A stretch of DNA of 64,000 nucleotides from Escherichia phage vB_EcoM-ZQ1: sequence record MW650886.1. The stretch is one strand, 5' to 3'. Under the pieces are notes generated by a model. The model saw only the letters and a list, made by a program, of their open reading frames with translations, was not told the DNA's origin and did not search any database. Of the stretch, positions 13,399 through 39,319 are shown in pieces (position 1 is the stretch's first letter; each line of letters opens with the position of its first letter). The position numbers were made by a program, and so were the translations under genes.

Positions 13399-13468
13399 TC
13401 CGAGATTCTCCTTTTCTATACTCCTGTAGATACACTATGATAAGCCAATGTCTACAGGAGAAAATAGA

Positions 13469-14662
13469 ATGAACAAGACCATCTTCGATATCCTTTCCCT
13501 CGACCGCAACCTGGTCCATTGGGAAGATTATCTCTACAAGCACACCCCGTGCGAACTTGTCGTCAACCACGAAACCAACCAGCAGGTCTGGTTCAAGCGT
13601 GAAGATTATTTTGCGCCGCTGTCCAATTATGCAAATGGCCAGCAGGGCATCAACGGCAGCAAACTCCGCCAGGCCATCTGGTTGATGGTTGAGCACCTCA
13701 AGGCCGGAGGCTCCCCTGACATCATCCATGGTACTGTCGTTGGTAGTCCGCAGTCCCCTATGGCGACGGCAGTCTCTCGGCACTTCGGCGGCAAGACAAC
13801 CACTGTACTCGGAGCGACCAAACCCACCACCTGTATGAACCATGAAATGGTGAAAATGAGCGCCTGGTTCGGTAGTGAGTTCAACTTCGTCGGCTCGGGT
13901 TACAACAGCACGATCCAGCCGCGCTGTAAGAAGTTGATCGAACAACAGAATCCAAAGGCGTATTATCTGGAGTATGGTATCACCCTCGACCATACAACCC
14001 ACTCCCCTGAGCGCATTGCTGGGTTCCATATGCTGGGTGGCGAGCAGGTTGCCAACATTCCTGATCACATTACTGACCTGATCATCCCAGCCGGATCGTG
14101 CAACTCTTGCACAAGCATCCTGACCGGGCTGGCAATGCATCCGAAGCCTAATCTGAAGCGTGTGTATCTGATTGGCATCGGTCCGAACCGCCTGGACTTC
14201 ATTGAGAGCCGTCTGCGCATCATCGGCAAACATGCCAATCTGCCGCACATTGTCGACTTCACCCGTCGTTATCACGACAACCCAGACTATGTACACGGCA
14301 AGAAGGAGCTTCAGCATGCCTCTAAGAGCGTTTCGCTGGCTGGCCTCCTAAGTGGTATCAGGCAGAAGGAAGAGCCAGAGGTCGTGCTTCCTCGCTTTGA
14401 GGTACACCATTGGGATCTTCATACCACTAATTGGGTTCGTTATAATGACCTGATGGAATATCAGTGGGGTGATATTGAGTTGCATCCTCGCTATGAAGGC
14501 AAGGTCATGACCTGGGTTCAGCAACACAAGCCCGAGTTGCTCAACGAGAACACTCTGTTCTGGATTGTGGGCAGCAAGCCGTACATTGAGCCAATGAAGG
14601 CTGCATGTCCTGAACTGGCTATCCCCGAAGCAGTACCTGTGAACGGATTCACCCCTTCCTGA
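13469..14662 (+). CDS. PLP-dependent enzyme, fold type II (ACC deaminase / D-cysteine desulfhydrase / tryptophan synthase beta-like)
   Basis: Motif GINGSKLRQAIWLM...GTVVGSPQSPMATAVSRHFGGKTTTV resembles the GGNKxRKL...QSNHxRxxAAxA signature of the family; start moved to the ATG with SD AGGAGA. Confidence 0.55.
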   Translation: MNKTIFDILSLDRNLVHWEDYLYKHTPCELVVNHETNQQVWFKREDYFAPLSNYANGQQGINGSKLRQAIWLMVEHLKAGGSPDIIHGTVVGSPQSPMATAVSRHFGGKTTTVLGATKPTTCMNHEMVKMSAWFGSEFNFVGSGYNSTIQPRCKKLIEQQNPKAYYLEYGITLDHTTHSPERIAGFHMLGGEQVANIPDHITDLIIPAGSCNSCTSILTGLAMHPKPNLKRVYLIGIGPNRLDFIESRLRIIGKHANLPHIVDFTRRYHDNPDYVHGKKELQHASKSVSLAGLLSGIRQKEEPEVVLPRFEVHHWDLHTTNWVRYNDLMEYQWGDIELHPRYEGKVMTWVQQHKPELLNENTLFWIVGSKPYIEPMKAACPELAIPEAVPVNGFTPS

Positions 14663-17201: not shown

Positions 17202-18619
17202 ATGACCGTTTTCTATACGAACGTTGCCCGCAGGGGTAATGACCTGTTGATTCGAATTGCAGATGACATGGGTAATCGCCGTCTGTTGAAAAAGAAATTC
17301 GAACCTACTCTCTATTTACCCACGGCTGACTATTCAAATGTTGAAAAGGTCGGTCTTCTCAATGAACCCCTGGTAGCCAAGCAGTTCCCTTCCATGCGTG
17401 ACGCTGACAACTATCTTGAAGAGTACAAGGAAGTCCAGGGTGCTGCCATTTACGGGCAGACCGATTATGCATACCAGTTCATCGCCCATAGCTTTCCTGG
17501 AAAGATTGAGCCGGATTATTCCAACATCCATATTGCTAACCTCGATATCGAAGTGTTCTCCGCCGGGTGGAAAGATGGAAAGATGACCAAAGGTCCATTC
17601 CCTCACCCAACCATTGAGCAGCAGACGTTCAAAGGGAATGAGGCGCGCATTCGCCGCTTCCATCAGCAGGTACTGGCCAACCATGACTTCATCCGTGAGC
17701 ACTTTCCCAGTTCCTTTATCAGCAACAACGTCACTGATCAGTTCCCTATCATTGACAGCAACGGCAAGATCACCCAAGACATGAATGCGGCGTTCCCCAT
17801 TACCCTGATCCAGCTTCAGGATATGGCGACCAATAAGTTCATGGTCTGGGGTATGCCCTGTGCCAAAGACCGCAATAAGTTCGCATACGACACCGAAGAC
17901 AAAGAGATCGGCGGCCTTGAGGTTGTTTATCAGGAGTTCACCACAGAACAAGATCTGCTGCGCTCGTTCCTAGACTTCTGGTCGGAGCGTCAGTTTGATG
18001 GCTGGACTGGCTGGAACATTGAGACGTTTGATAGCCCTTATCTTGTTGAGCGCATGAATCAGGTTCTGGGTGAGGCTGAAACGTCGCGCCTCAGTCCTTG
18101 GGGTATCATTAAGAAGCGTATCATTCGCGATAAGAAGGGCGATATCACGACGTATCAGTTCGTGGGTTGCCCTATGCTCGATTATATGCAGATCTACAAG
18201 AAACACACGTACACCACCCGTGAACGCTACTCTCTTGACTGGATTGCGTATTGTGAGCTGGGTGAGAAGAAGATGGACTACAGTGAGAGCAAGTCGCTCT
18301 TTGATCTGTACTTCAACGACTACTGCAAACACACCCGATATGGTATCAAAGACGTTAAGCTGGTATGGCGACTTGAACAGAAGCTGCGCCTGCTCCAACT
18401 GATGTTCGTCCTGGCCTACCGCACCAAGTCCAACTATGAAGACGGTCTGGGCACTGTGGCTCCGTGGCTGGCCATGTGCTACTATCGCCTGTACGAGAAG
18501 GGGATAGTGCCTAAGATCCAGCGTGTATACGATGGTCCGACCGACTTTGAGGGTGCATACGTCATGGATGTGACACCAGGAATCTACTTCTGGGTCTTCT
18601 CGGAAGATTTGAACTCCCT
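17202..18619 (+). CDS. DNA polymerase, family B (T4 gp43-like), exon 1 (N-terminal exonuclease half)
   Basis: Exo I motif NLDIEV; ORF terminates 5 codons after the sequence DLNSL, which is the first half of polymerase motif A. Confidence 0.75.
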
Positions 18620-19802
18620 TAAGTTAGCAGCATAGGGGCTTTGGTTGGCGACAACCATCGAATAACTCTCTTAATTGCTGGGAAGTCTCTTTAGAGATAA
18701 TCAGCAGCCAAGGTCGGCCACGAAGACCTAAATACTCTGTAACCACGGTGAAGGAGTAAGGTCATGAAGGAAATCAAGAGTCTGTTCTATCGAAATGATT
18801 TGGTAATTGAAGAATCTAAGATAGAAGAATATTTGAAGTTCTGTAAGGAACACAGTTATGATGGTGATGGATACAGTGAACGCCATCATGTACTGCCTCA
18901 GGCACATTATCCTGAGTTCTCTAAAGAAGAATGGAACATCGTAAACCTGTTGTACAAAGATCATGTGGAGGCTCATCGCCTATTGCATGAAGCATTACCA
19001 GAAGATAAATCAGCGTTCTTCGCCTACTTCATGATGAAATCCCATAACGGGGAACTAAGTGAGGAATTGAGAAGAAAGAATGTTGAAATGTTGACGGGAG
19101 AAGGGAATCCTTCGAAGAGGGAAGATGTCAGAAGAAAGATATCCAAATCTAAGAAGGGTGTTAAAAGGGCAGATATGAAGGGTAAGGCTTATTTCGGCGC
19201 TGATAAAGAAACAGCTGAAAGAATTAAAGCCAATTCCAGTCTTGTTCACAAAGGCACTGTCCCCGTAAGACTCCTGGATGGTAGTGTTATCAAAGTTTCA
19301 ACGCAAGACCCGAGATATTTGAGTGGTGAGTTGAAATGTATAATAGGTGCAAAGAAAGGTCAGGTGGGACCAAACACCGACCCAAAAGCGAAGAAGAAAT
19401 TTAAAGATTCTTTAGAGAAAAGGAAGGAAATGTTTGCCAGAATGAGTGGGGAAGAAATAACCACTCATTGCTTGACACAACAGGATTTAGGTAAGAAGAC
19501 TGTAGAGTGGGGCAAGTTGGCAAGAAACTTCAAACGACTCTTTGGTTACGCTGGGTTAAACCCAGATGATTTCCTTGAAGTAGTGGGCGACAAGGTTCAA
19601 CGACTATCGAAAGCAAGACCGACGACTAAGCGTCTGATCTGAAGCGAGTAGAGTAGGGGCAAGCGCCTCGAAATGGAGAGAATCTCTAGACAGTTCTGGA
19701 GATTGTGATATAGTCTGGCCTGTATGGTGACATACAGCAGTGTTCGGTAAACTGAATGACGAACACGGGGGATGAAATAGCGAGCATCCCTGAACACAAG
19801 CG
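18620..19802 (+). mobile_element. Putative group I intron carrying an HNH homing endonuclease, inserted in the DNA polymerase gene
   Basis: Splicing 18619 to 19803 restores the frame and yields DLNSLYPHII (motif A); exon 1 ends in U, intervening sequence ends in G; internal ORF has an HNH motif. Confidence 0.6.
18764..19642 (+). CDS. HNH homing endonuclease (intron-encoded)
   Basis: HNH motif ERHHVLPQAHYPEF...NIVNLLYKDHVEAH; NUMOD-like repeats GEGNPSKREDVRRKISKSKKG; SD AAGGAG. Confidence 0.7.
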   Translation: MKEIKSLFYRNDLVIEESKIEEYLKFCKEHSYDGDGYSERHHVLPQAHYPEFSKEEWNIVNLLYKDHVEAHRLLHEALPEDKSAFFAYFMMKSHNGELSEELRRKNVEMLTGEGNPSKREDVRRKISKSKKGVKRADMKGKAYFGADKETAERIKANSSLVHKGTVPVRLLDGSVIKVSTQDPRYLSGELKCIIGAKKGQVGPNTDPKAKKKFKDSLEKRKEMFARMSGEEITTHCLTQQDLGKKTVEWGKLARNFKRLFGYAGLNPDDFLEVVGDKVQRLSKARPTTKRLI

Positions 19803-21150
19803 ATATCCACACATCATTCAGCAGTACAACCTCGGTCCTGAGACTATCGTTGGCGACAAACACCAGCGCCGCGAGATTATTGAGGCTATGTGTGAAGAGC
19901 TGGCTGCTCAGATGAATAACATGGCAACGCCGATGCACAAACGTCGGTTGATGAAAGCCCTTCACGACAAGCTGTTGCGTGCGGTTGACGAACGCCTGCA
20001 GGTTGTTGATGAGTTGGTTGCCCTGGGTGAGTTCCACTTTGAAACCCTGCGCCGCTACAACGTGTCGTTCACGCCGAACGTTCAATTCTTCAGCAACGAG
20101 AAGATGTCGTTCCTGTCTGAAATCATGCGTGGTATCTACAGCGACCGTAAAGTAGAGAAGGCCAAGGGTCTGAAGTATGAGCAGTGGGCTGGCTGGTGTA
20201 AAGAGATGTCGAAGGGCGACTTCCATCTTGAGTCTGCCATAAAGTCTCGCTACTATGACCCAGAGTGGTATGAAGAGCACAAGAACATTGATCTTGATGC
20301 CCTGACCGAAGTGATGAAGAAGTGGGAAGATCTGGGTGTTGCTCAAGATACCCTACAGCAAGGTCTGAAGATCTTGATGAACGCAGGTTATGGCGCTATC
20401 TCGAACGTCTGGTTCAAAGAGTACTTCAACCTCAACATTGCCGAAGCCATCACCACATCCGGTCAGCTGATCAATAAGTGGAACAAGCGTTACACTGATG
20501 ACTATCTGAACAAGCTGTGTGGTACAACAGGCCAGGACTTCGTCATTGCAGGGGATACCGACTCCAACTACATCTGTATTGAGCGTCTTGTCAAGCAGTT
20601 GTGGCCTGATGTTACTGACCATCATGCTATGGTTGATAATATCGACCAATGGATCAAAGACAACTACCAGCCGAAGACCAATGAGTGGGCACAGCTTCTG
20701 TGTAACACCATGAACGGATTTGAACAGCGCATGGTGTGGGAGCGTGAGGTCATTGCGTCAGCCGCTGTCTGGCGAGCCAAGAAGATGTATGCCATGGCCG
20801 TGTACGACAGTGAGGGTATCAAGTACGAGAAGCCGAAGATCAAGTTCAAAGGTCTGGAAGCCCGCAAGTCCACCACGCCGGAATGGTGTCGTGAGCGTCT
20901 TGTTAAGTGCTATGAGAAGATCCTACTCGGCACCGAAGAGGAAGTACAGACGCTCATCTCCCAGTACAAAGAGGAGTACATGAAGCTCTCTGTAGACGAT
21001 ATCGCCAAGGCATCCGGTGTGTCCGACATAGAGAAGTGTGTGGCCGCCGACGGCTCGTTCATCTCTGGTGCTCACTATGCTGCCAAGGCTTGTGTGGGTT
21101 ACAACCGTCTGGTTGAGAAGAACGAAGACCTCGGGCCTGCCGATGATTGA
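19803..21150 (+). CDS. DNA polymerase, family B, exon 2 (polymerase half)
   Basis: Begins YPHIIQQYNLGPETIV (motif A continuation); motif B KILMNAGYGA; motif C VIAGDTDSNYI. Confidence 0.75.
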
Positions 21151-21446
21151 GTCGGGTGATAAGGTCAACATGGTACTGCTGAAGAATGGCAACCCGTTTG
21201 GCCAGAATTACTTCGCATACCTGAGTTCTTCCCCGAGGAGCTTGGTCTGGGCAAATGGGTGGATTATCAGGCGGCCTTTGAGAAGTCCTTCATTGATCCG
21301 ATTCAGTCTATCCTCGACGTGGTCGGCTGGTCACACAAGCGCCGTGTGAACCTTCTTGCCATGATGCAAAAGAAGAAAGGTTGATTCAATAAACCAAAGG
21401 GGGATATAATTCCCCCTGTTAACCCTTTGACAAACAGGTGATTGAA

Positions 21447-21788
21447 ATGAAACTCAATAAGATTCTTCTGGTGTGTGCTCTGGCTTTCTCTACCACTGCG
21501 TGTTCCACCCTTCTGGACGTTGCATCTACTGTAGACCTTGACGCGCCGACGTTCACCAATGAGCAGGCCGTGTCTAAGATGGAAGACACCATCAAAGCAC
21601 ATGCAGCACTGGACAACACTACCCCAGGTCCGCTCCAAACTGTCTGCAACTATGACGATTCCATCCAGGAAGACGAAACTTACCACTGCATCACCTACGT
21701 GAAGCAGGCCTCCGTCGTTCTGTATGCAGATTGTACCGAAGAACAGTGTGTTGCTACAGGCTACGATAAAGTTGAGGAAGACAAATGA
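21447..21788 (+). CDS. Putative lipoprotein
   Basis: Signal peptide MKLNKILLVCALAFSTTAC with Cys at the lipobox position; SD AGGTGA; track start 21438 is a GTG. Confidence 0.45.
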   Translation: MKLNKILLVCALAFSTTACSTLLDVASTVDLDAPTFTNEQAVSKMEDTIKAHAALDNTTPGPLQTVCNYDDSIQEDETYHCITYVKQASVVLYADCTEEQCVATGYDKVEEDK

Positions 21789-22561
21789 ACAACCTGGTTT
21801 GTATCTATGATATGAAATCAAAGGTCGGTGGCCTGTATCGCGTCCTCGTGGATGTTGACCTGACTTTGGTCGACAGCCTCTCCCCTTGGGTGCAGTGGTT
21901 CAACGAAGAGAATCTCAGCTTATCCAAGCATTATGACGGTCATGGACCAGCGCCGTTCCAGCCGATCACTAAAGAGTGTTATATGTCCCATGCTGGCGAC
22001 CTGGCTATTCTGATGCGTGAACGTGCGCATCCGGCGTGGCTATACCATGAAGTCCAATTGGGGCTGCACAAACAACGTGTGCCAAGCGGTAACGATCCTA
22101 TGGACTGGTGGCGTCGCCCTGACCTGTACGCCAAGATGAACCCACTTCCAGGCGCTTACGAGTTCCTGGTGAATCTGAAGAAGATTCTACTCGAAGACTT
22201 TGACAATGTTGAATTCATCGCAGTGTCCAAGTGTGAGCCGGAACACGAGCGCAGCAAGCGTCAGTTTGTCTATGACAAGTTCCCTGGTATCTTCAACGGG
22301 TTTGTCAGCACCGACGAAAAGCATCTGCTGGCTGGCGATGTCCTGATTGATGACAATCCGAAGTATGTCGAGCCATGCGGCCTGAACAACATCTTTGTCA
22401 TCTTTGTTCCTCAGGGCAATTATGAAAAACTGGATCTTTCGAATTCGGAAGACATGCTTTATATTAAACCAGTAGAAGGCCAGAATCACTTCGACTTCCT
22501 GAACCGCAATATTGTCGAAGTGGTGAACCGCCTGATTAGTCATTATCAATACGTCCGATAG
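21785..22561 (+). CDS. HAD-superfamily phosphatase (5'-deoxyribonucleotidase-like)
   Basis: HAD motif I VLVDVDLTLVDS (DxDxT) and C-terminal DD motif (VLIDDNPKY). Confidence 0.55.
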   Translation: MNNLVCIYDMKSKVGGLYRVLVDVDLTLVDSLSPWVQWFNEENLSLSKHYDGHGPAPFQPITKECYMSHAGDLAILMRERAHPAWLYHEVQLGLHKQRVPSGNDPMDWWRRPDLYAKMNPLPGAYEFLVNLKKILLEDFDNVEFIAVSKCEPEHERSKRQFVYDKFPGIFNGFVSTDEKHLLAGDVLIDDNPKYVEPCGLNNIFVIFVPQGNYEKLDLSNSEDMLYIKPVEGQNHFDFLNRNIVEVVNRLISHYQYVR

Positions 22562-22570
22562 GAGGACATC

Positions 22571-22876
22571 GTGCAAGAACAATCCAAGTTTGGGGAAACC
22601 CCAGACAAGCGTTCCGGTGATAGCGACATGGATAGCGTGATTAACCATGTGAACAACTTCATTCGTCAGCAGGAGACTCCAACTCCTATCGGTGCAGCCA
22701 AGGCTCTTCATGATATACTGGTGAAGATCGGCCAGCGCTCTGAAGCAGATGAAATCTTCTATAACTTCGACGACCAGTATAAAGTGAAGTTTGAAGAGAA
22801 TGGCCACCCACAGGTTGCTGTGTTCTGGGCACCTTGGCTGGGTGGCGTGAGCTGGCGTATTGAGGATGCTGTGTAA
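22571..22876 (+). CDS. Hypothetical protein
   Basis: 101-aa ORF. Confidence 0.4.
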   Translation: MQEQSKFGETPDKRSGDSDMDSVINHVNNFIRQQETPTPIGAAKALHDILVKIGQRSEADEIFYNFDDQYKVKFEENGHPQVAVFWAPWLGGVSWRIEDAV

Positions 22877-24474
22877 TGGCTCGCTACCATTACACATATA
22901 GGATAACTCATGTCCCAACTGGGAGATTCTACGTCGGGATTCGGTCTTGTTCATGCACCCCCGAACAAGACCCCTATATGGGTTCTGGTGTTATCATCAA
23001 AAGGTTGTTGGAATCTCACCCCGCTTCTGAATTCTTAAAGACGATAATAGAAAAGTTTGAAACCAGGTTGGAGGCGTCCGACCTGGAGTCTATTATTGTT
23101 ACGGAAGAGTTACTGTTGGACCCATTATGCCTGAACCTGAAATTGGGAGGAGACAATTCTATCATACCAAACCAATTTAAGGCGGCGTTGGCCAGGACTG
23201 GCAAGAAATACAAATCTGGTATAAATCCTTGGGATGATCCAGAATACCGGGAACGTGTAATAAAATCAATAAAGGAGAACAGGGGTAATTCTCCCTACCC
23301 ATTCATGGTTTCAAATGGTTATTGGTGGGTTTGGAAGGACGCCCGTAGGATCTATGATAGATGGGTGAACAACGGCGGTACTGTGAATCCTACCTGTATG
23401 CCAAAACGAGGATGTGGTTACAAATCTATCGGATTGTGGTATTCTAAACTACTGGACACAGAGTATCGTAATCTAAAGGGCGATGAGAGCGTCTTTCGTA
23501 ATATGATCGCCATGTTTAAAGATGGTTGGATTCCCAAAGAGGACAAACGTTTTATGACTATGATAAATTCTAGCGTGACGCCGGGTATTGTCGTTATTCG
23601 CGGGACAAGTGGAACGGGAAAGGGGACTCGTGTCGTTCAATTCCTTGAGTGGTTGAGAACCAAATATGAGCCAGAACTCATAGAATACGAATTCGACAAG
23701 AAGATGATCCAGGTTGGGTTTTGGTTCAAGGAAATCAATCTGGTGTTCATCGGCAAGTATACAGTGTCCAACAAATCAGGTCTAGCATCATGGACTTCTA
23801 TGGATTTCATACACTCCACTCTCAAGTCTTCTGAGATGGCCAATTCGTTGTTGAAGTATCTCAAAATAAAGTTCAAAGATGCAACTATCATCTTGGAGGG
23901 GGAACCTATGATGCAGAGCCATCGATGGCGTCCCGAGTTCGTACACCAGGACTTGGGGTTCAACAACATGGCATTCATCTCCTTTATTTACCAAGCGCGG
24001 GAAGATTACGACAAACGTATCATCGGTCGTTCTGGTAAGGCGGCGAAGGACACTGGCTGGGGAAGAAATGAACAATACACCAAGGATCACGTCAAGATCA
24101 TGGGTGAGTACGCTTCCATCGGATACGAACTTGAACCAGACTCTCAGAATGAGTTGTTCATTGCAAAGGCAGCGAATGAAAATGGTGTAAAGGCAGTTGG
24201 TTGGAATATACTGAAATTCTTCGATGCCCCTCTCCACTTTATTGGTAGTTTTATTATAGATTTTGTTGGATTGAGAGGGTTGTCCAAAGAAGAGTTTCAA
24301 AAATATTGCGACACCACACCAATGTTGCGCAAGATTAAGGGTAGCAACCCTTTGGCGCACAGAGTCCCTGAGAAGCCGCAGAAGGCATCCAAAACTAAAA
24401 CCAAGGCGAGCGCCCAGCCAGAAGCAACGAAGGCAGCGTCGCGCTCTCTCCTTGACCTGATGAAGAAGGGGTGA
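22876..24474 (+). CDS. P-loop kinase with GIY-YIG-like N-terminal extension (candidate 5-hydroxymethyl-dU DNA kinase-type enzyme)
   Basis: N-terminus YHYTYRITHVPTGRFYVGIRS resembles a GIY-YIG nuclease motif; Walker A GIVVIRGTSGTGKGT at about residue 235, preceded by an internal ATG. Confidence 0.5.
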   Translation: MARYHYTYRITHVPTGRFYVGIRSCSCTPEQDPYMGSGVIIKRLLESHPASEFLKTIIEKFETRLEASDLESIIVTEELLLDPLCLNLKLGGDNSIIPNQFKAALARTGKKYKSGINPWDDPEYRERVIKSIKENRGNSPYPFMVSNGYWWVWKDARRIYDRWVNNGGTVNPTCMPKRGCGYKSIGLWYSKLLDTEYRNLKGDESVFRNMIAMFKDGWIPKEDKRFMTMINSSVTPGIVVIRGTSGTGKGTRVVQFLEWLRTKYEPELIEYEFDKKMIQVGFWFKEINLVFIGKYTVSNKSGLASWTSMDFIHSTLKSSEMANSLLKYLKIKFKDATIILEGEPMMQSHRWRPEFVHQDLGFNNMAFISFIYQAREDYDKRIIGRSGKAAKDTGWGRNEQYTKDHVKIMGEYASIGYELEPDSQNELFIAKAANENGVKAVGWNILKFFDAPLHFIGSFIIDFVGLRGLSKEEFQKYCDTTPMLRKIKGSNPLAHRVPEKPQKASKTKTKASAQPEATKAASRSLLDLMKKG

Positions 24475-24476
24475 TC

Positions 24477-24674
24477 ATGAAACGGTTGTCTAATTATCTG
24501 TTGTTCATTGGTCTGGTTATGGCAGCCGTTTCAATGTGTACTGCCCTAGCCTATCATTTCACCCCTCTGGACTTAACAACCTCAGAGAAGTTAAACGTGA
24601 CTGTGATGTACTGTATTGGCGCGGTGATGTCTATCGGCGCTGCTGGTTACAAAATATTCAAGGAACCAAAATGA
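24477..24674 (+). CDS. Small membrane protein
   Basis: 65 aa, two hydrophobic helices; SD GAAGGGG; track start 24471 is a GTG. Confidence 0.4.
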   Translation: MKRLSNYLLFIGLVMAAVSMCTALAYHFTPLDLTTSEKLNVTVMYCIGAVMSIGAAGYKIFKEPK

Positions 24675-25048
24675 AAATTCAAATTCCTCGCGATGCTGTG
24701 GCTGTTGCGATCGACTACACCGGAAACGCCAAGCACATTACTGCCGTGCGCCTGATTCCTGAAAAGAACTGCGTCATCCCTCAGTTCCAACTGAATGCCA
24801 ATCCGTCATCCAAAGACTTTGGCAAGTGGTTGCAGGCTGCTCCGTTCCGTACCCAGACGAACGCTCAGATGTTCATCTCGAGTAAGACCCACACCGCAGC
24901 CCGTCTGTGGTTCGTGACCGCTGACCGTCGCTTTGTCGATATGTGGGAACGTCCGATGGGGTTCGTGAAGCCGGAAGATATTCAGCTGGCTCCTGAGCCT
25001 GAAGCTGTGGCTCCTGAAGAGGAAGCGAAAGATGCATCATTTATCTAA
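24671..25048 (+). CDS. Hypothetical protein
   Basis: 125 aa; ATG overlaps the upstream stop (ATGA); the track ORF 24536..25048 has an unlikely upstream start. Confidence 0.45.
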   Translation: MKIQIPRDAVAVAIDYTGNAKHITAVRLIPEKNCVIPQFQLNANPSSKDFGKWLQAAPFRTQTNAQMFISSKTHTAARLWFVTADRRFVDMWERPMGFVKPEDIQLAPEPEAVAPEEEAKDASFI

Positions 25049-26267
25049 AATGCCGACGGGCTATACGCCTCCGGCTGAATGGAAGTACCCGATTGACCTG
25101 GCTGTTGATTATCGCAAGCCTGAGAATCGCATGTACCTGCTCAAGGCTTGGGTGGAGGCGCTGTCCTACACAGAAGAGCACAACCAGCAGATGCGTCTGA
25201 TGGACTATGCGATCGAAGTCACTGAAGGCATCAGCCTCGAACAGAAAGTCGAGCGCAAGATCTGGATGGCATTCCTGTGGGGTTGTTGCTATAACGCCGT
25301 CGGGCCGTGGACGATCTACAGTGAGTTCCCTGTGCCGCCTCAGTCTAAGGAAGATATGCAGCGCTTCTCTGATTGGTACAACCTGAACTTTGATCGCATG
25401 CGATTCGATACCGACTGTCGCTACCGCAAGTCCAAGATGATTCCGTGTGTTCAGTCCTATATTGACTGGCTGGCTGGCCGTACTCAATATGACGCTTTCC
25501 GTGGGATGTTGGTGTGCATCGATAAGACAGAACAATTCACCCAGCTGTGGGACACGGCGATGTCCTGGAAATACTTCGGTCGCCTGAGCGCCTGGAACTT
25601 CCTGGAAGCCCTGAACATGGTATTCGGAAACGAATACACCATTGACGTCCCTGGCTTCATGTTGCGTGATCGTGATGGAAGCGAGTCCAACCGTAATGGC
25701 GCGGCGTTCTTGTCCAACCGTGACGATTGGGTGACTAAACACGGGAAGAAAAAGATCAACGGTTGTCCTATCATGGATGAAGAGTGTGACATCCTTGAGG
25801 CCGACCTTGAGCAGGCGTTCCAGGATTGTGTGGCTGAGTTCGGGCACCTGACGTTCATCAACCGCCTGAACTTTGAAACCTCCGGCGCTTGTTGGCTGAA
25901 GAAATTCTTCCGACTGAAGAATACCCGTTACATCGGGTGGGACGCAGAGCGTACTTGGGATGAGATAGACTACATGGAACGCGTCTGGCCTGAATACTCC
26001 TGCGCAGCGCTCTGGGAAGCCCGTTCGCTCTGGCTGCCAGATACCCTGTTGTGCGAAAAGGCTCCTGTAGGGCACGTTCCAGGCGTCCAGAAGTGGAAGA
26101 TGCCTGTATTCTTTGAGACTGGTGTTCCTCTGCATATCTGGCACCTGCAAAAGGGTACGCGCTGGGAACCATCCGAGGTATGTACGAACCTGAAGATGCC
26201 TGTGCGCAAGGTTGAGGACAAGTCGAAGTCCAGCAGCGTCAACCTCATGGCACTCTTGAAACGCTGA
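25032..26267 (+). CDS. Hypothetical protein (candidate DNA base-modification enzyme by context)
   Basis: 411-aa ORF directly downstream of the kinase; SD GAGGAAG; the antisense 369-aa ORF 25041..26150 is judged a shadow. Confidence 0.45.
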   Translation: MHHLSKMPTGYTPPAEWKYPIDLAVDYRKPENRMYLLKAWVEALSYTEEHNQQMRLMDYAIEVTEGISLEQKVERKIWMAFLWGCCYNAVGPWTIYSEFPVPPQSKEDMQRFSDWYNLNFDRMRFDTDCRYRKSKMIPCVQSYIDWLAGRTQYDAFRGMLVCIDKTEQFTQLWDTAMSWKYFGRLSAWNFLEALNMVFGNEYTIDVPGFMLRDRDGSESNRNGAAFLSNRDDWVTKHGKKKINGCPIMDEECDILEADLEQAFQDCVAEFGHLTFINRLNFETSGACWLKKFFRLKNTRYIGWDAERTWDEIDYMERVWPEYSCAALWEARSLWLPDTLLCEKAPVGHVPGVQKWKMPVFFETGVPLHIWHLQKGTRWEPSEVCTNLKMPVRKVEDKSKSSSVNLMALLKR

Positions 26268-26301
26268 TATAAATATCCTCGCCTATAAAGCGAGGATATT
26301 A

Positions 26302-26472
26302 TCATGTTACAAGATCTGTTGGTTTATGCGCTTCCTGGCGCGGTTGTCGGCTTCATCGCTGGTGCTCTGGTCTTCCGTAAACACGCGCAAGATGGTGAAG
26401 TGATTGTTCAGAAGGGTAAGGACATCCTGGAACAAATCGAAGCCAAGCTGGAAGAGCTGAAGAAAAAGTAAT
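26302..26472 (+). CDS. Small single-TM protein (56 aa)
   Basis: MLQDLLVYALPGAVVGFIAGALVFRK... followed by a charged tail; preceded by a hairpin containing TATAAATA. Confidence 0.35.
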
Positions 26473-26497
26473 CTGACTGGGTTGCTTCCTTCAATAA

Positions 26498-26536
26498 AGG
26501 GGAATGGGTTATTATTAGCCCGTTCCCCTTTCTTTT
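26498..26536 (+). terminator. Intrinsic terminator
   Basis: Stem GGGGAATGGG / CCCGTTCCCC followed by TTTCTTTTT; preceded by TTCAATAAA. Confidence 0.6.
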
Positions 26537-26638
26537 TGCAAGAATATACATCATGGCAATGCAACGAATTGAAGATATGTCTCTACTCAACATGGAAGCG
26601 ACTTTTGGCGCTTCCGTTATCGTCATGGGAGAATCCAA

Positions 26639-38475: not shown

Positions 38476-39053
38476 AATTTCTACACACTATCGTCGACAC
38501 TTCTTATGACTGCACTGCTCATACCCCAGACCGTTCGCCTGTGTTTGTTCTGAACAAACTAGGTGAAGAGATCTGTGAACTGTCTGATGTGTTTCATGGC
38601 ATAGTATCTTCCGAGCCGTTGAATGGCGAAGTTGCTGATGTCATTATCTCTGCTATTGACCTTCTGTACGTCATGGATTATGACGACGTCCAATTGCGCG
38701 GCTCTCTGAACAAGGCCGAAATGATCGACTCTGTCATCAACCACATGGCGACAGTGAACGATATTTCTTCTAATCTGTTGGAAGAAGACTGGTTCCGTCT
38801 GATTGATCGTGATCCTCAAAAGCATCTGAATCTTATCCATCATTATCATGGCCGGATTATCCGATTGTGCAACCAGCCTTATCGCAGTCAAGACAGATTG
38901 GATCAACTCGTCAATGACCTAATCAAGCATGTTGCGCGCATGGGGTGTGGGGAAGGGGCGATACGTGGATCCTCTTTGATGGCCACTCGCATTAAAGTGG
39001 AGCACGCTATTGAACACAAGGTTGAAAAGTGGCGTACTGAATTTGGCTTATGA
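38472..39053 (+). CDS. MazG-like nucleotide pyrophosphohydrolase (putative)
   Basis: All-alpha NTP-PPase-like motifs LGEEICELSDVF and EVADVIISAIDLLYV. Confidence 0.4.
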   Translation: MKFLHTIVDTSYDCTAHTPDRSPVFVLNKLGEEICELSDVFHGIVSSEPLNGEVADVIISAIDLLYVMDYDDVQLRGSLNKAEMIDSVINHMATVNDISSNLLEEDWFRLIDRDPQKHLNLIHHYHGRIIRLCNQPYRSQDRLDQLVNDLIKHVARMGCGEGAIRGSSLMATRIKVEHAIEHKVEKWRTEFGL

Positions 39054-39319
39054 ATAACATACAACCTTGGGAACACCCGACTGTCGTAAAGACGGGTAAA
39101 TCCCGACAATGGCTCTTGGCTGGTGAATTCTTTGAATGGTGGTATAGTAACGGTGAAGACAAAGTGAAGAACCGTTATTGTTTAATGTTGAAAGAAACCG
39201 GGTTAAGCTCTGTGTGTTCTAAGGCCACAGCACAAACTTGTATATCTAAATTTCAGAAAGGTTGGATACCAAAAGAAGATTCCGCCTGGTTGAAATTTTA
39301 CGGAGATAATAATGGTTGA
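39050..39319 (+). CDS. Hypothetical protein
   Basis: 89-aa ORF. Confidence 0.4.
   Translation: MNNIQPWEHPTVVKTGKSRQWLLAGEFFEWWYSNGEDKVKNRYCLMLKETGLSSVCSKATAQTCISKFQKGWIPKEDSAWLKFYGDNNG

Follow-up and report, generated by a model that had tools for sequence, protein, structure and literature searches.

A putative Seg-like homing endonuclease fused in frame to a predicted 5-hydroxymethyl-dU DNA kinase in Ackermannviridae phages

The SegB, SegD, SegF and SegG endonucleases of phage T4 combine a GIY-YIG nuclease with a separate C-terminal domain. Their genes are inserted between conserved genes and are present in some related phages and absent from others; they spread by 'intronless homing', in which flanking sequence is co-converted, the neighbouring allele is replaced and endonucleases compete with one another (Edgell, Gibb & Belfort 2010, PMC2988022). 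In Salmonella phage ViI, the kinase gp243 (YP_004327565) of the 5-NeOmdU pathway phosphorylates 5-hydroxymethyl-dU (5-hmdU) in DNA, and gp247 then transfers serine (Lee et al. 2021, PMC8989533). Here we describe a gene that joins relatives of both kinds of protein in one frame, the open reading frame (ORF) at 22876-24474 on the + strand of a 64,000-nucleotide stretch (hereafter, the window) of Escherichia phage vB_EcoM-ZQ1 (MW650886.1), an Aglimvirinae-like member of the Ackermannviridae. The gene is already on record in phage LIMEstone1, where ORF186 ('F-LimXI') was listed as a SegB-like GIY-YIG free-standing endonuclease followed by ORF187 (Adriaenssens et al. 2012, PMC3296691). LIMEstone1 ORF186 is the same gene as that of the window, with 94% amino acid identity, the same locus, the same 532-amino-acid (aa) architecture and the same family (phrog_15209), but its C-terminal 300-aa kinase went unrecognised in the published description (PMC3296691). 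Other records name the gene only 'P-loop nucleotide kinase 2', and full-text literature searches, whose incomplete coverage leaves absence unproven, returned no description of it as a fusion.

The ORF is one unbroken frame of 532 aa, and its start ATG overlaps the TAA stop of the upstream DUF7254 gene (TAATG). We favour, at a probability of about 0.7, the interpretation that a homing endonuclease has been welded in frame to a private 5-hmdU DNA kinase allele and spreads by replacing the resident kinase, with both domains functional. The initial annotation, made from the letters alone, had proposed a single ORF joining a GIY-YIG-like module to a P-loop kinase. This proposal was confirmed, as the same unbroken ORF was found in 28 GenBank/RefSeq records representing 25 distinct phages and in seven metagenomic protein clusters, a recurrence far beyond chance. 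The closest relatives, at 98-99% identity over the region 22000-25500, are fGh-Ecl02 (Enterobacter), PC3, PH4 and YX22 (Escherichia) and vB_CECAV_050 (Salmonella).

Analysis of the N-terminal half (aa 1 to about 227) indicated a complete Seg-like GIY-YIG homing endonuclease, consisting of nuclease, linker and C-terminal domain, for which DNA cleavage is predicted by homology. The nuclease domain occupies aa 1-95 (22876-23160, +) and was modelled by AlphaFold2 (AF2) with a predicted local distance difference test score (pLDDT) of 93-98. The GIY-YIG-like motif that had first drawn attention, YTYRITHVPTGRFYVGIRS at aa 6-24, fits the GIY...YIG signature of the large Seg-like family, which calls for two motifs about 10 residues apart in an N-terminal beta-hairpin: they read Y6-T-Y8 and Y19-V-G21, and no substitution of Y8, Y19 or G21 occurs in 101 aligned family members or in any fusion. 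The key residues of the domain are Y8, Y19, G21, R23, D32, Y34, G36-S37-G38, E71, N87 and G91-G92. Nine fusion proteins have kept the invariants Y8, Y19, G21, Y34, G36, E71, N87, G91 and G92 together with R/H23, D32, S37 and G38, and the family-invariant catalytic residues are retained in fusions down to 38% identity. E71 and N87 are invariant in the family as well as in the nine fusions, while position 23 is R or H across the family. We take R23, E71 and N87 to be the presumed equivalents of the catalytic residues R27, E75 and N90 of I-TevI. The ratio of nonsynonymous to synonymous substitution rates (dN/dS) for the nuclease half was 0.10-0.16, with dS up to 1.8, and the half has therefore been maintained as a protein.

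An exhaustive HMMER search of 1.84 billion representative proteins returned 6259 homologues of the N-terminal half, 721 of them at E <= 1e-10. These are mostly free-standing GIY-YIG proteins, and nearly all of the best 150 of the 6259 are 150-350 aa long and align to aa 1 to about 100/140. By tblastn, T4 SegB, SegC and Seg-like endonucleases were about 35% identical to this half, with E values of 1e-8 to 1e-13 for the SegB/C/D-like matches. These homologues, together with the retention of all invariant residues, place the N-terminal half in a nuclease family and not in a non-nuclease one. Less sensitive approaches were uninformative. A search of PDB sequences with the N-terminal half returned chance matches only, and a word-indexed protein search with this half alone returned zero matches because the sensitivity of the tool is limited. 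A fold search with the whole model was dominated by the kinase domain and taught us nothing on the nuclease; with the N-terminal half modelled separately, the top PDB match of the aa 1-95 model was the I-TevI catalytic domain (1ln0; TM score 0.60 on the target, 98 columns), at a Foldseek E value of 1.1 that is not significant.

Downstream of the nuclease domain, a linker modelled at low confidence (aa 96-138; 23161-23289, +; AF2 pLDDT 31-65) leads to an endonuclease-type C-terminal domain that is presumed to bind DNA (aa ~139-226; 23290-23553, +) and ends in GDESVFRNM..MFKDGWIPKED. The C-terminal parts of four PHROG homing-endonuclease families (25551, 26163, 7504 and 655) matched residues ~139-227 (E 9e-5 to 7e-3), which are also paralogous to an 89-aa endonuclease-domain ORF elsewhere in the window, at 39050-39319. 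Residues ~139-227 form a single C-terminal domain: the homing-endonuclease-like repeats that had been suggested for this region were not detected, and Pfam reported neither NUMOD nor other repeat matches. The endonuclease part stops within a few residues of the first strand of the kinase.

The kinase half (aa 236-531; 23581-24468, +) matched Pfam PF18747, HMUD2 ('5-hmdU DNA kinase 2'), at 519 bits against a cutoff of 25 (E 3.8e-156) and over profile positions 2-298 of 298. Its Walker A motif, GTSGTGKGT, lies at aa 243-251 (23602-23628), and the AlphaFold model is confident over aa 235-500, with a fold that resembles P-loop nucleoside monophosphate kinases. Over the whole kinase the sequence is 47% identical to ViI gp243, which occupies the same position and also matches HMUD2. 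The gene order DNA polymerase, small ORF, NT5C, DUF7254, kinase, two small ORFs, gp247/ADDT is common to the window and ViI, where the counterparts run gp226...gp243...gp247. The proposed likeness to hmdU DNA kinases thus held up with regard both to the P-loop and to the full-length HMUD2 match and position, and the proposed hypermodification context held up as well: the amino-acid:DNA transferase ADDT (aGPT-Pplase2; 25032-26267, +), counterpart of gp247 and responsible for the next step of the pathway, and a pyridoxal-phosphate (PLP) enzyme (13448-14662) are encoded nearby, with NT5C at 21785-22561. By homology to gp243, the kinase half of the fusion is predicted to phosphorylate 5-hmdU in DNA. 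Constraint on this half is strong (dN/dS ~0.05), and of 96 columns that hardly vary among stand-alone kinases (at least 95% conserved in 53 sequences), 61 are unchanged in all ten fused sequences, which retain the motifs GTSGTGKGTR (the P-loop), SNKS..SWTSMD, EGEP, WRP, YD.R and GRSGK. Two elements 3' of the pathway genes bracket the end of the kinase-ADDT operon, namely a T4-type late-promoter motif (TATAAATA) at 26268-26275, immediately 3' of the ADDT stop codon, and a terminator-like 16-bp hairpin at 26496-26531, 3' of the next small ORF.

The fused kinases nevertheless differ from the ViI type. Whereas gp243 is a stand-alone protein of 304 aa, the kinase of the window carries the N-terminal endonuclease and falls in a separate subclade, which has lineage-specific substitutions at 35 of the 96 otherwise near-invariant positions. 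Kinases at least 64% identical to that of the window were all fused and the stand-alone kinases were all at most 51% identical to it; a search of 5.8 billion proteins yielded only fused members of this kinase clade. In a neighbour-joining tree of the kinases, which was unbootstrapped and midpoint-rooted, the fused kinases with 64-100% identity formed one clade apart from all stand-alone Ackermannviridae kinases, while the two 38% fusions (P0006 and P0007) branched separately and basally, beside the stand-alone P0064.

Carriers among the 25 phages comprise the Dickeya Limestonevirus group, pSal-SNUABM-02 (Agtrevirus), Salmonella phages PMBT18 and UTK0004, Yersinia phage CAU_YEP3, Klebsiella Taipeivirus KpS110 (81% identity) and the window's own group. 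The collection of 5.8 billion proteins held further fusions at 80, 78, 64, 64, 39 and 38% identity. No stop codon separates nuclease from kinase in any of the 25 phages or the seven metagenomic clusters, and the junction, GDE[ST]VF.NM..MFK.GW.P..D....M[ILV]..SV, is homologous in all fusions down to 38% identity. Across fusions, 33 of 95 aligned residues of the middle domain and junction are invariant, a conservation equal to that of the kinase. Repeated, independent fusion events are unlikely because the junction motif and middle domain are homologous throughout, although the tree leaves the point unsettled. By these comparisons, the fusion is an old, conserved family rather than a one-off. 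The two most distant fusions lie in another gene order (topoisomerase, NT5C, ALC, fusion, ADDT, one ORF, HMUDK_hel). In these phages HMUDK_hel (PF18723) is found two genes 3' of ADDT (L012 9462-10670; L013 9584-10771), and their hypermodification cluster therefore differs from the ViI type. An IMG/VR scan returned no relatives of the distant fusion P0006, and a scan with a profile of the junction and middle domain returned three loci only, two of them phages already known; the wider distribution of the fusion family is therefore poorly sampled.

Comparison of carriers with non-carriers revealed that the endonuclease half and about 90% of the divergent kinase allele form a discrete segment (22881-24348, +). 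To either side of this segment LHE287 matches the window at 98-100% identity, yet it encodes an ordinary 305-aa kinase. The two sequences diverge right after ATGGC (22880/22881) and rejoin at 24349, 126 nt before the stop codon, in the ...PLAHRVPEK tail. Identical, sharp boundaries were seen in three carrier/non-carrier pairs: window/LHE287 and KpS110/Menlow, where the flanks are 98-100% identical, and LIMEstone1/XF4, members of the same species, where the near flanks are 82-97% identical and lie within a wider recombinant tract. In that last pair (L001 and L009), about 3 kb 3' of L001:5950 is 100% identical, and at least 4.8 kb between L001 positions ~1100 and 5950, including the 3' part of the polymerase gene, is 80-98% identical, which marks a large recombinant tract with the endonuclease-rich polymerase-kinase region at its centre. 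The reverse relationship was seen between carriers. The cassette is 97.8% identical between LIMEstone1 and PMBT18, whose flanks are 80-81% identical, and 97.3% identical between the window and pSal-SNUABM-02, whose flanks are 88-89% identical. These values indicate that the cassette is younger than its flanks and has recently moved between genera.

The site itself is occupied in different ways. It is empty in LHE287, FrontPhageNews and ViI, whereas RPN242, XF4 and SilasIsHot have in this place a SegD-like GIY-YIG gene that is unrelated, with 27% identity confined to the nuclease domain, and that forms a separate ORF overlapping the start of a stand-alone-type kinase. By analogy with T4, presence or absence with sharp boundaries, a SegD-like competitor at the same site and a young cassette make up a classic homing signature, and such a polymorphism is typical of selfish elements. 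The locus thus resembles the T4 Seg genes in domain organisation, in insertion between conserved genes, in its polymorphism among related phages and in replacement of the neighbouring allele along with co-converted flanks. It departs from them in two respects: the T4 genes have their own stop codons, whereas the fusion frame runs into the neighbouring gene to give one polypeptide, and the cargo kinase allele is never seen without the nuclease.

These observations suggest the following mechanism. A Seg-type GIY-YIG endonuclease gene would have inserted at the 5' end of a gp243-type kinase gene and long ago become fused to it in frame, so that the endonuclease and its private, divergent kinase allele (22881-24348) would move as one cassette. 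During mixed infection, as in T4 intronless homing, the endonuclease would cut the locus carrying a stand-alone kinase allele, and double-strand-break repair would copy the cassette from the donor. Since the cassette and the stand-alone kinase alleles are only ~50% identical in nucleotide sequence, recombination would resolve only at two places, on the left in the DUF7254 gene and on the right in the conserved 126 nt with which the kinase gene ends, and the entire resident kinase gene would be replaced. The DUF7254 gene (22571-22876, +; 'thioredoxin' in other annotations) would provide the left homology arm with its 3' end, which also carries a Shine-Dalgarno-like element, GAGGA at 22862-22866 (+), 9 nt 5' of the fusion ATG; this is the element that serves the stand-alone kinase in empty-site phages. 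The kinase half would then phosphorylate 5-hmdU in the replicated DNA, and the adjoining amino-acid:DNA transferase would act on the product.

Since an internal ATG just before the Walker A box had been noted, together with the suggestion that the kinase may also be made alone, we examined the junction for signs of a second start. Two in-frame candidates, M227 (23554) and M229 (23560), fall within 23554-23562 (+), 16 and 14 codons before G243. Met229 is conserved in every fusion and Met227 is an extra of the window lineage. An internal GAGGA (23539-23543, +) precedes ATG-227 by 10 nt, so that the window-type start has the same element at nearly the same spacing as the authentic 5' start, and GAGG stands 9-11 nt 5' of Met229 in the P0004, P0005, P0006 and P0007 lineages. 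Among the genes of the window, GAGG at comparable spacing precedes 8 of 369 internal in-frame ATGs (2.2%) versus 17 of 61 gene starts (28%). Synonymous-codon conservation moreover peaks at codons 216-231 (0.59-0.68, compared with ~0.40 elsewhere). The conserved Met, and the GAGG found 9-11 nt upstream of an internal Met in every lineage against a 2.2% background, support the suggestion of a separately made kinase. Internal transcription received no such support: sigma-70-like promoters that could give a kinase-only transcript were at chance level in 21000-26600 (9 found, 6.8 expected), and the fusion ORF contains no copy of the T4-type late-promoter motif TATAAATA.

The 5' start of the fusion, for its part, is GTG in three of six phage lineages. 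Around the UAAUG stop/start overlap of DUF7254 and the fusion (22870-22896, +), a perfect 10-bp RNA hairpin (GUGUAAUGG...CCAUUACAC) is kept in window-type phages and in pSal-SNUABM-02, is weaker in other lineages and is absent from the empty-site allele. It is reminiscent of the hairpins that sequester ribosome binding sites of T4 endonuclease genes (PMC2988022) and may attenuate translation of the full-length product. The mRNA would thus probably yield both a 532-aa fusion, from a 5' start that is coupled to the DUF7254 stop and partly buried in the hairpin, and a kinase of ~305 aa; the features of the locus suggest a low level of the former and separate production of the latter from Met227/229. 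Another strong hairpin (23063-23086, +; 10 bp, dG -18.9 kcal/mol, z -3.8) lies in the nuclease domain over the TRLEASDLE codons, which include catalytic E71. A top-ranked hairpin occupies this position also in LIMEstone1, CAU_YEP3 and KpS110 (the same codons in L001, L008, L010, L013 and L015). P0005 has an unrelated 14-bp stem at these codons and P0007 also has a hairpin, whereas P0004 and P0006 are without one. The hairpin may act as a processing site or as an attenuator, or may be due to chance.

The possibility that a frameshift error in sequencing or assembly, or a wrong ORF call, has joined two adjacent genes is negligible. Although some database entries start the ORF at Met35 or annotate one function only, no support for such an artefact was found, and the frame is identical in 25 independently sequenced phages and seven metagenomic clusters that differ by hundreds of substitutions and contain zero frame breaks. 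A biological alternative is that the fusion is a frozen accident, in which an endonuclease gene lost its stop, the long protein is a read-through by-product, the phage relies on the internally started kinase and the nuclease half is a decaying or inert passenger. The internal Met229 with its GAGG in all lineages would be expected in this case, as would the features of the 5' start, with GTG as the initiation codon in half of the lineages and a hairpin that buries the start in the window type; furthermore, very few mutations at the junction could create a harmless stop, so that little selection is needed for the fusion to persist. A passenger, however, should not be under purifying selection at a dN/dS of 0.10-0.16 with dS above 1, nor keep all family-invariant catalytic residues to 38% identity and a middle domain conserved like the kinase (33 of 95 columns invariant), and recent transfer of the cassette between genera calls for an active agent or strong selection. 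We consider this explanation quite unlikely. Purifying selection on both halves would equally be expected of a domesticated, non-selfish two-domain enzyme, in which the nuclease module was recruited to the kinase, for instance as a DNA or sequence tether or as a 5-hmdU-guided weapon against competitor or host DNA. Conservation of both fusion and junction motif across very deeply diverged sequences and different phage types, the complete lack of unfused members of the kinase clade among 5.8 billion proteins, and the modelling of the junction as a helix (aa 224-232) running into the first kinase strand all fit such an enzyme. Yet the polymorphism is sharp, a SegD-like competitor sits at the same site and the cassette is young, as homing predicts; most Ackermannviridae, ViI included, thrive with a stand-alone kinase; and the segment from aa 96 to 230 was modelled at low confidence, so that no interdomain interface is supported. 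Domestication therefore seems unlikely to us.

Several points weigh against our preferred interpretation of a homing endonuclease with a private kinase allele. Cleavage site and activity of the endonuclease are putative, its target is not derivable from sequence, and the I-TevI match of the modelled nuclease domain tops the list of folds yet lacks significance. Spread of the cassette could reflect selection on the kinase allele instead of endonuclease action. The two 38%-identity fusions fall outside the main fused clade, and the tree therefore does not demonstrate that fusion occurred only once. Support for the internal start is indirect, and the lineages that share it are homologous and hence not fully independent. 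Finally, the open junction frame is weak evidence for selection on the fusion itself and for a need of the full-length protein, because few codons there could take a stop without harming either module. A bolder interpretation, in which the weld itself is functional and a gene-drive nuclease is permanently tied to a DNA-hypermodification enzyme, strikes us as doubtful. Were it correct, the tie would keep the drive from being easily lost, since any nonsense or frameshift mutation in the decaying nuclease would stop translation of the kinase as well, and the affinity of the kinase for fresh 5-hmdU DNA might bring the nuclease to competitor DNA before hypermodification hides its target.

Other homing endonucleases have also reshaped conserved enzyme genes without destroying them, as in the fusion, namely mobE of Aeh1 in nrdA, mobA of T4 in the topoisomerase gene and seg43 of phage 25 in gene 43. 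Those insertions, however, split the host gene into two polypeptides, whereas the fusion is a permanent N-terminal weld: the nuclease precedes the whole kinase and is not inserted within it. Endonucleases of inteins and group I introns are likewise in frame, but protein or RNA splicing takes them out; for the fusion protein neither an intein nor a Hint-type family was reported by Pfam, and RNA families were not searched. A 'free-standing' endonuclease permanently fused to the N-terminus of its cargo enzyme would appear to be a new variation on these known themes.

The fusion has also affected annotation of its relatives, as plain kinases of XF4, Coodle, FrontPhageNews, SilasIsHot, Gloob and GR28A are labelled as homing endonuclease or GIY-YIG protein. 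Stand-alone HMUD2 kinases named 'putative homing endonuclease (F-LimXI)' or 'GIY-YIG domain-containing protein' include those of XF4 (L009 3492-4421) and FrontPhageNews (gp28, L004 2492-3406), and SilasIsHot gp184 (L007 2492-3397), GR28A_00154 (L005 2450-3253) and the Coodle protein (P0033) are likewise mislabelled. The label was evidently transferred from the fusion protein, which has in this way seeded wrong annotations of ordinary 5-hmdU DNA kinases.

The window holds further traces of endonucleases. The gene for the family B DNA polymerase consists of two pieces, at 17202-18635 (exonuclease domain) and 19756-21150 (polymerase domain), and between them on the same strand lies a 292-aa HNH endonuclease ORF (18764-19642; phrog_12434, E 2e-159); the LIMEstone1 annotation lists intron endonucleases in the same polymerase gene. 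The 89-aa ORF at 39050-39319 (+) overlaps the start (39312) of the gene for the topoisomerase II large subunit. It represents a stand-alone homing-endonuclease C-terminal domain (phrog_25551, E 2e-34), has GWIPKED in common with the middle domain of the fusion, and is probably what remains of an endonuclease gene that has decayed. Upstream of topoisomerase II, LIMEstone1 has an endonuclease gene.

Decay is the expected fate of free-standing homing endonuclease genes after fixation, and their persistence in phage genomes is a puzzle. The endonuclease described here has stayed intact under purifying selection through deep divergence while, by our reading, travelling with its own DNA-modification allele. 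A functional weld, if true, would represent a new strategy of selfish-element persistence and phage competition. The fusion offers a natural, testable case of a gene-replacement cassette composed of nuclease plus cargo, and it suggests that thymidine-hypermodification genes are exchanged between phage genera via such elements.

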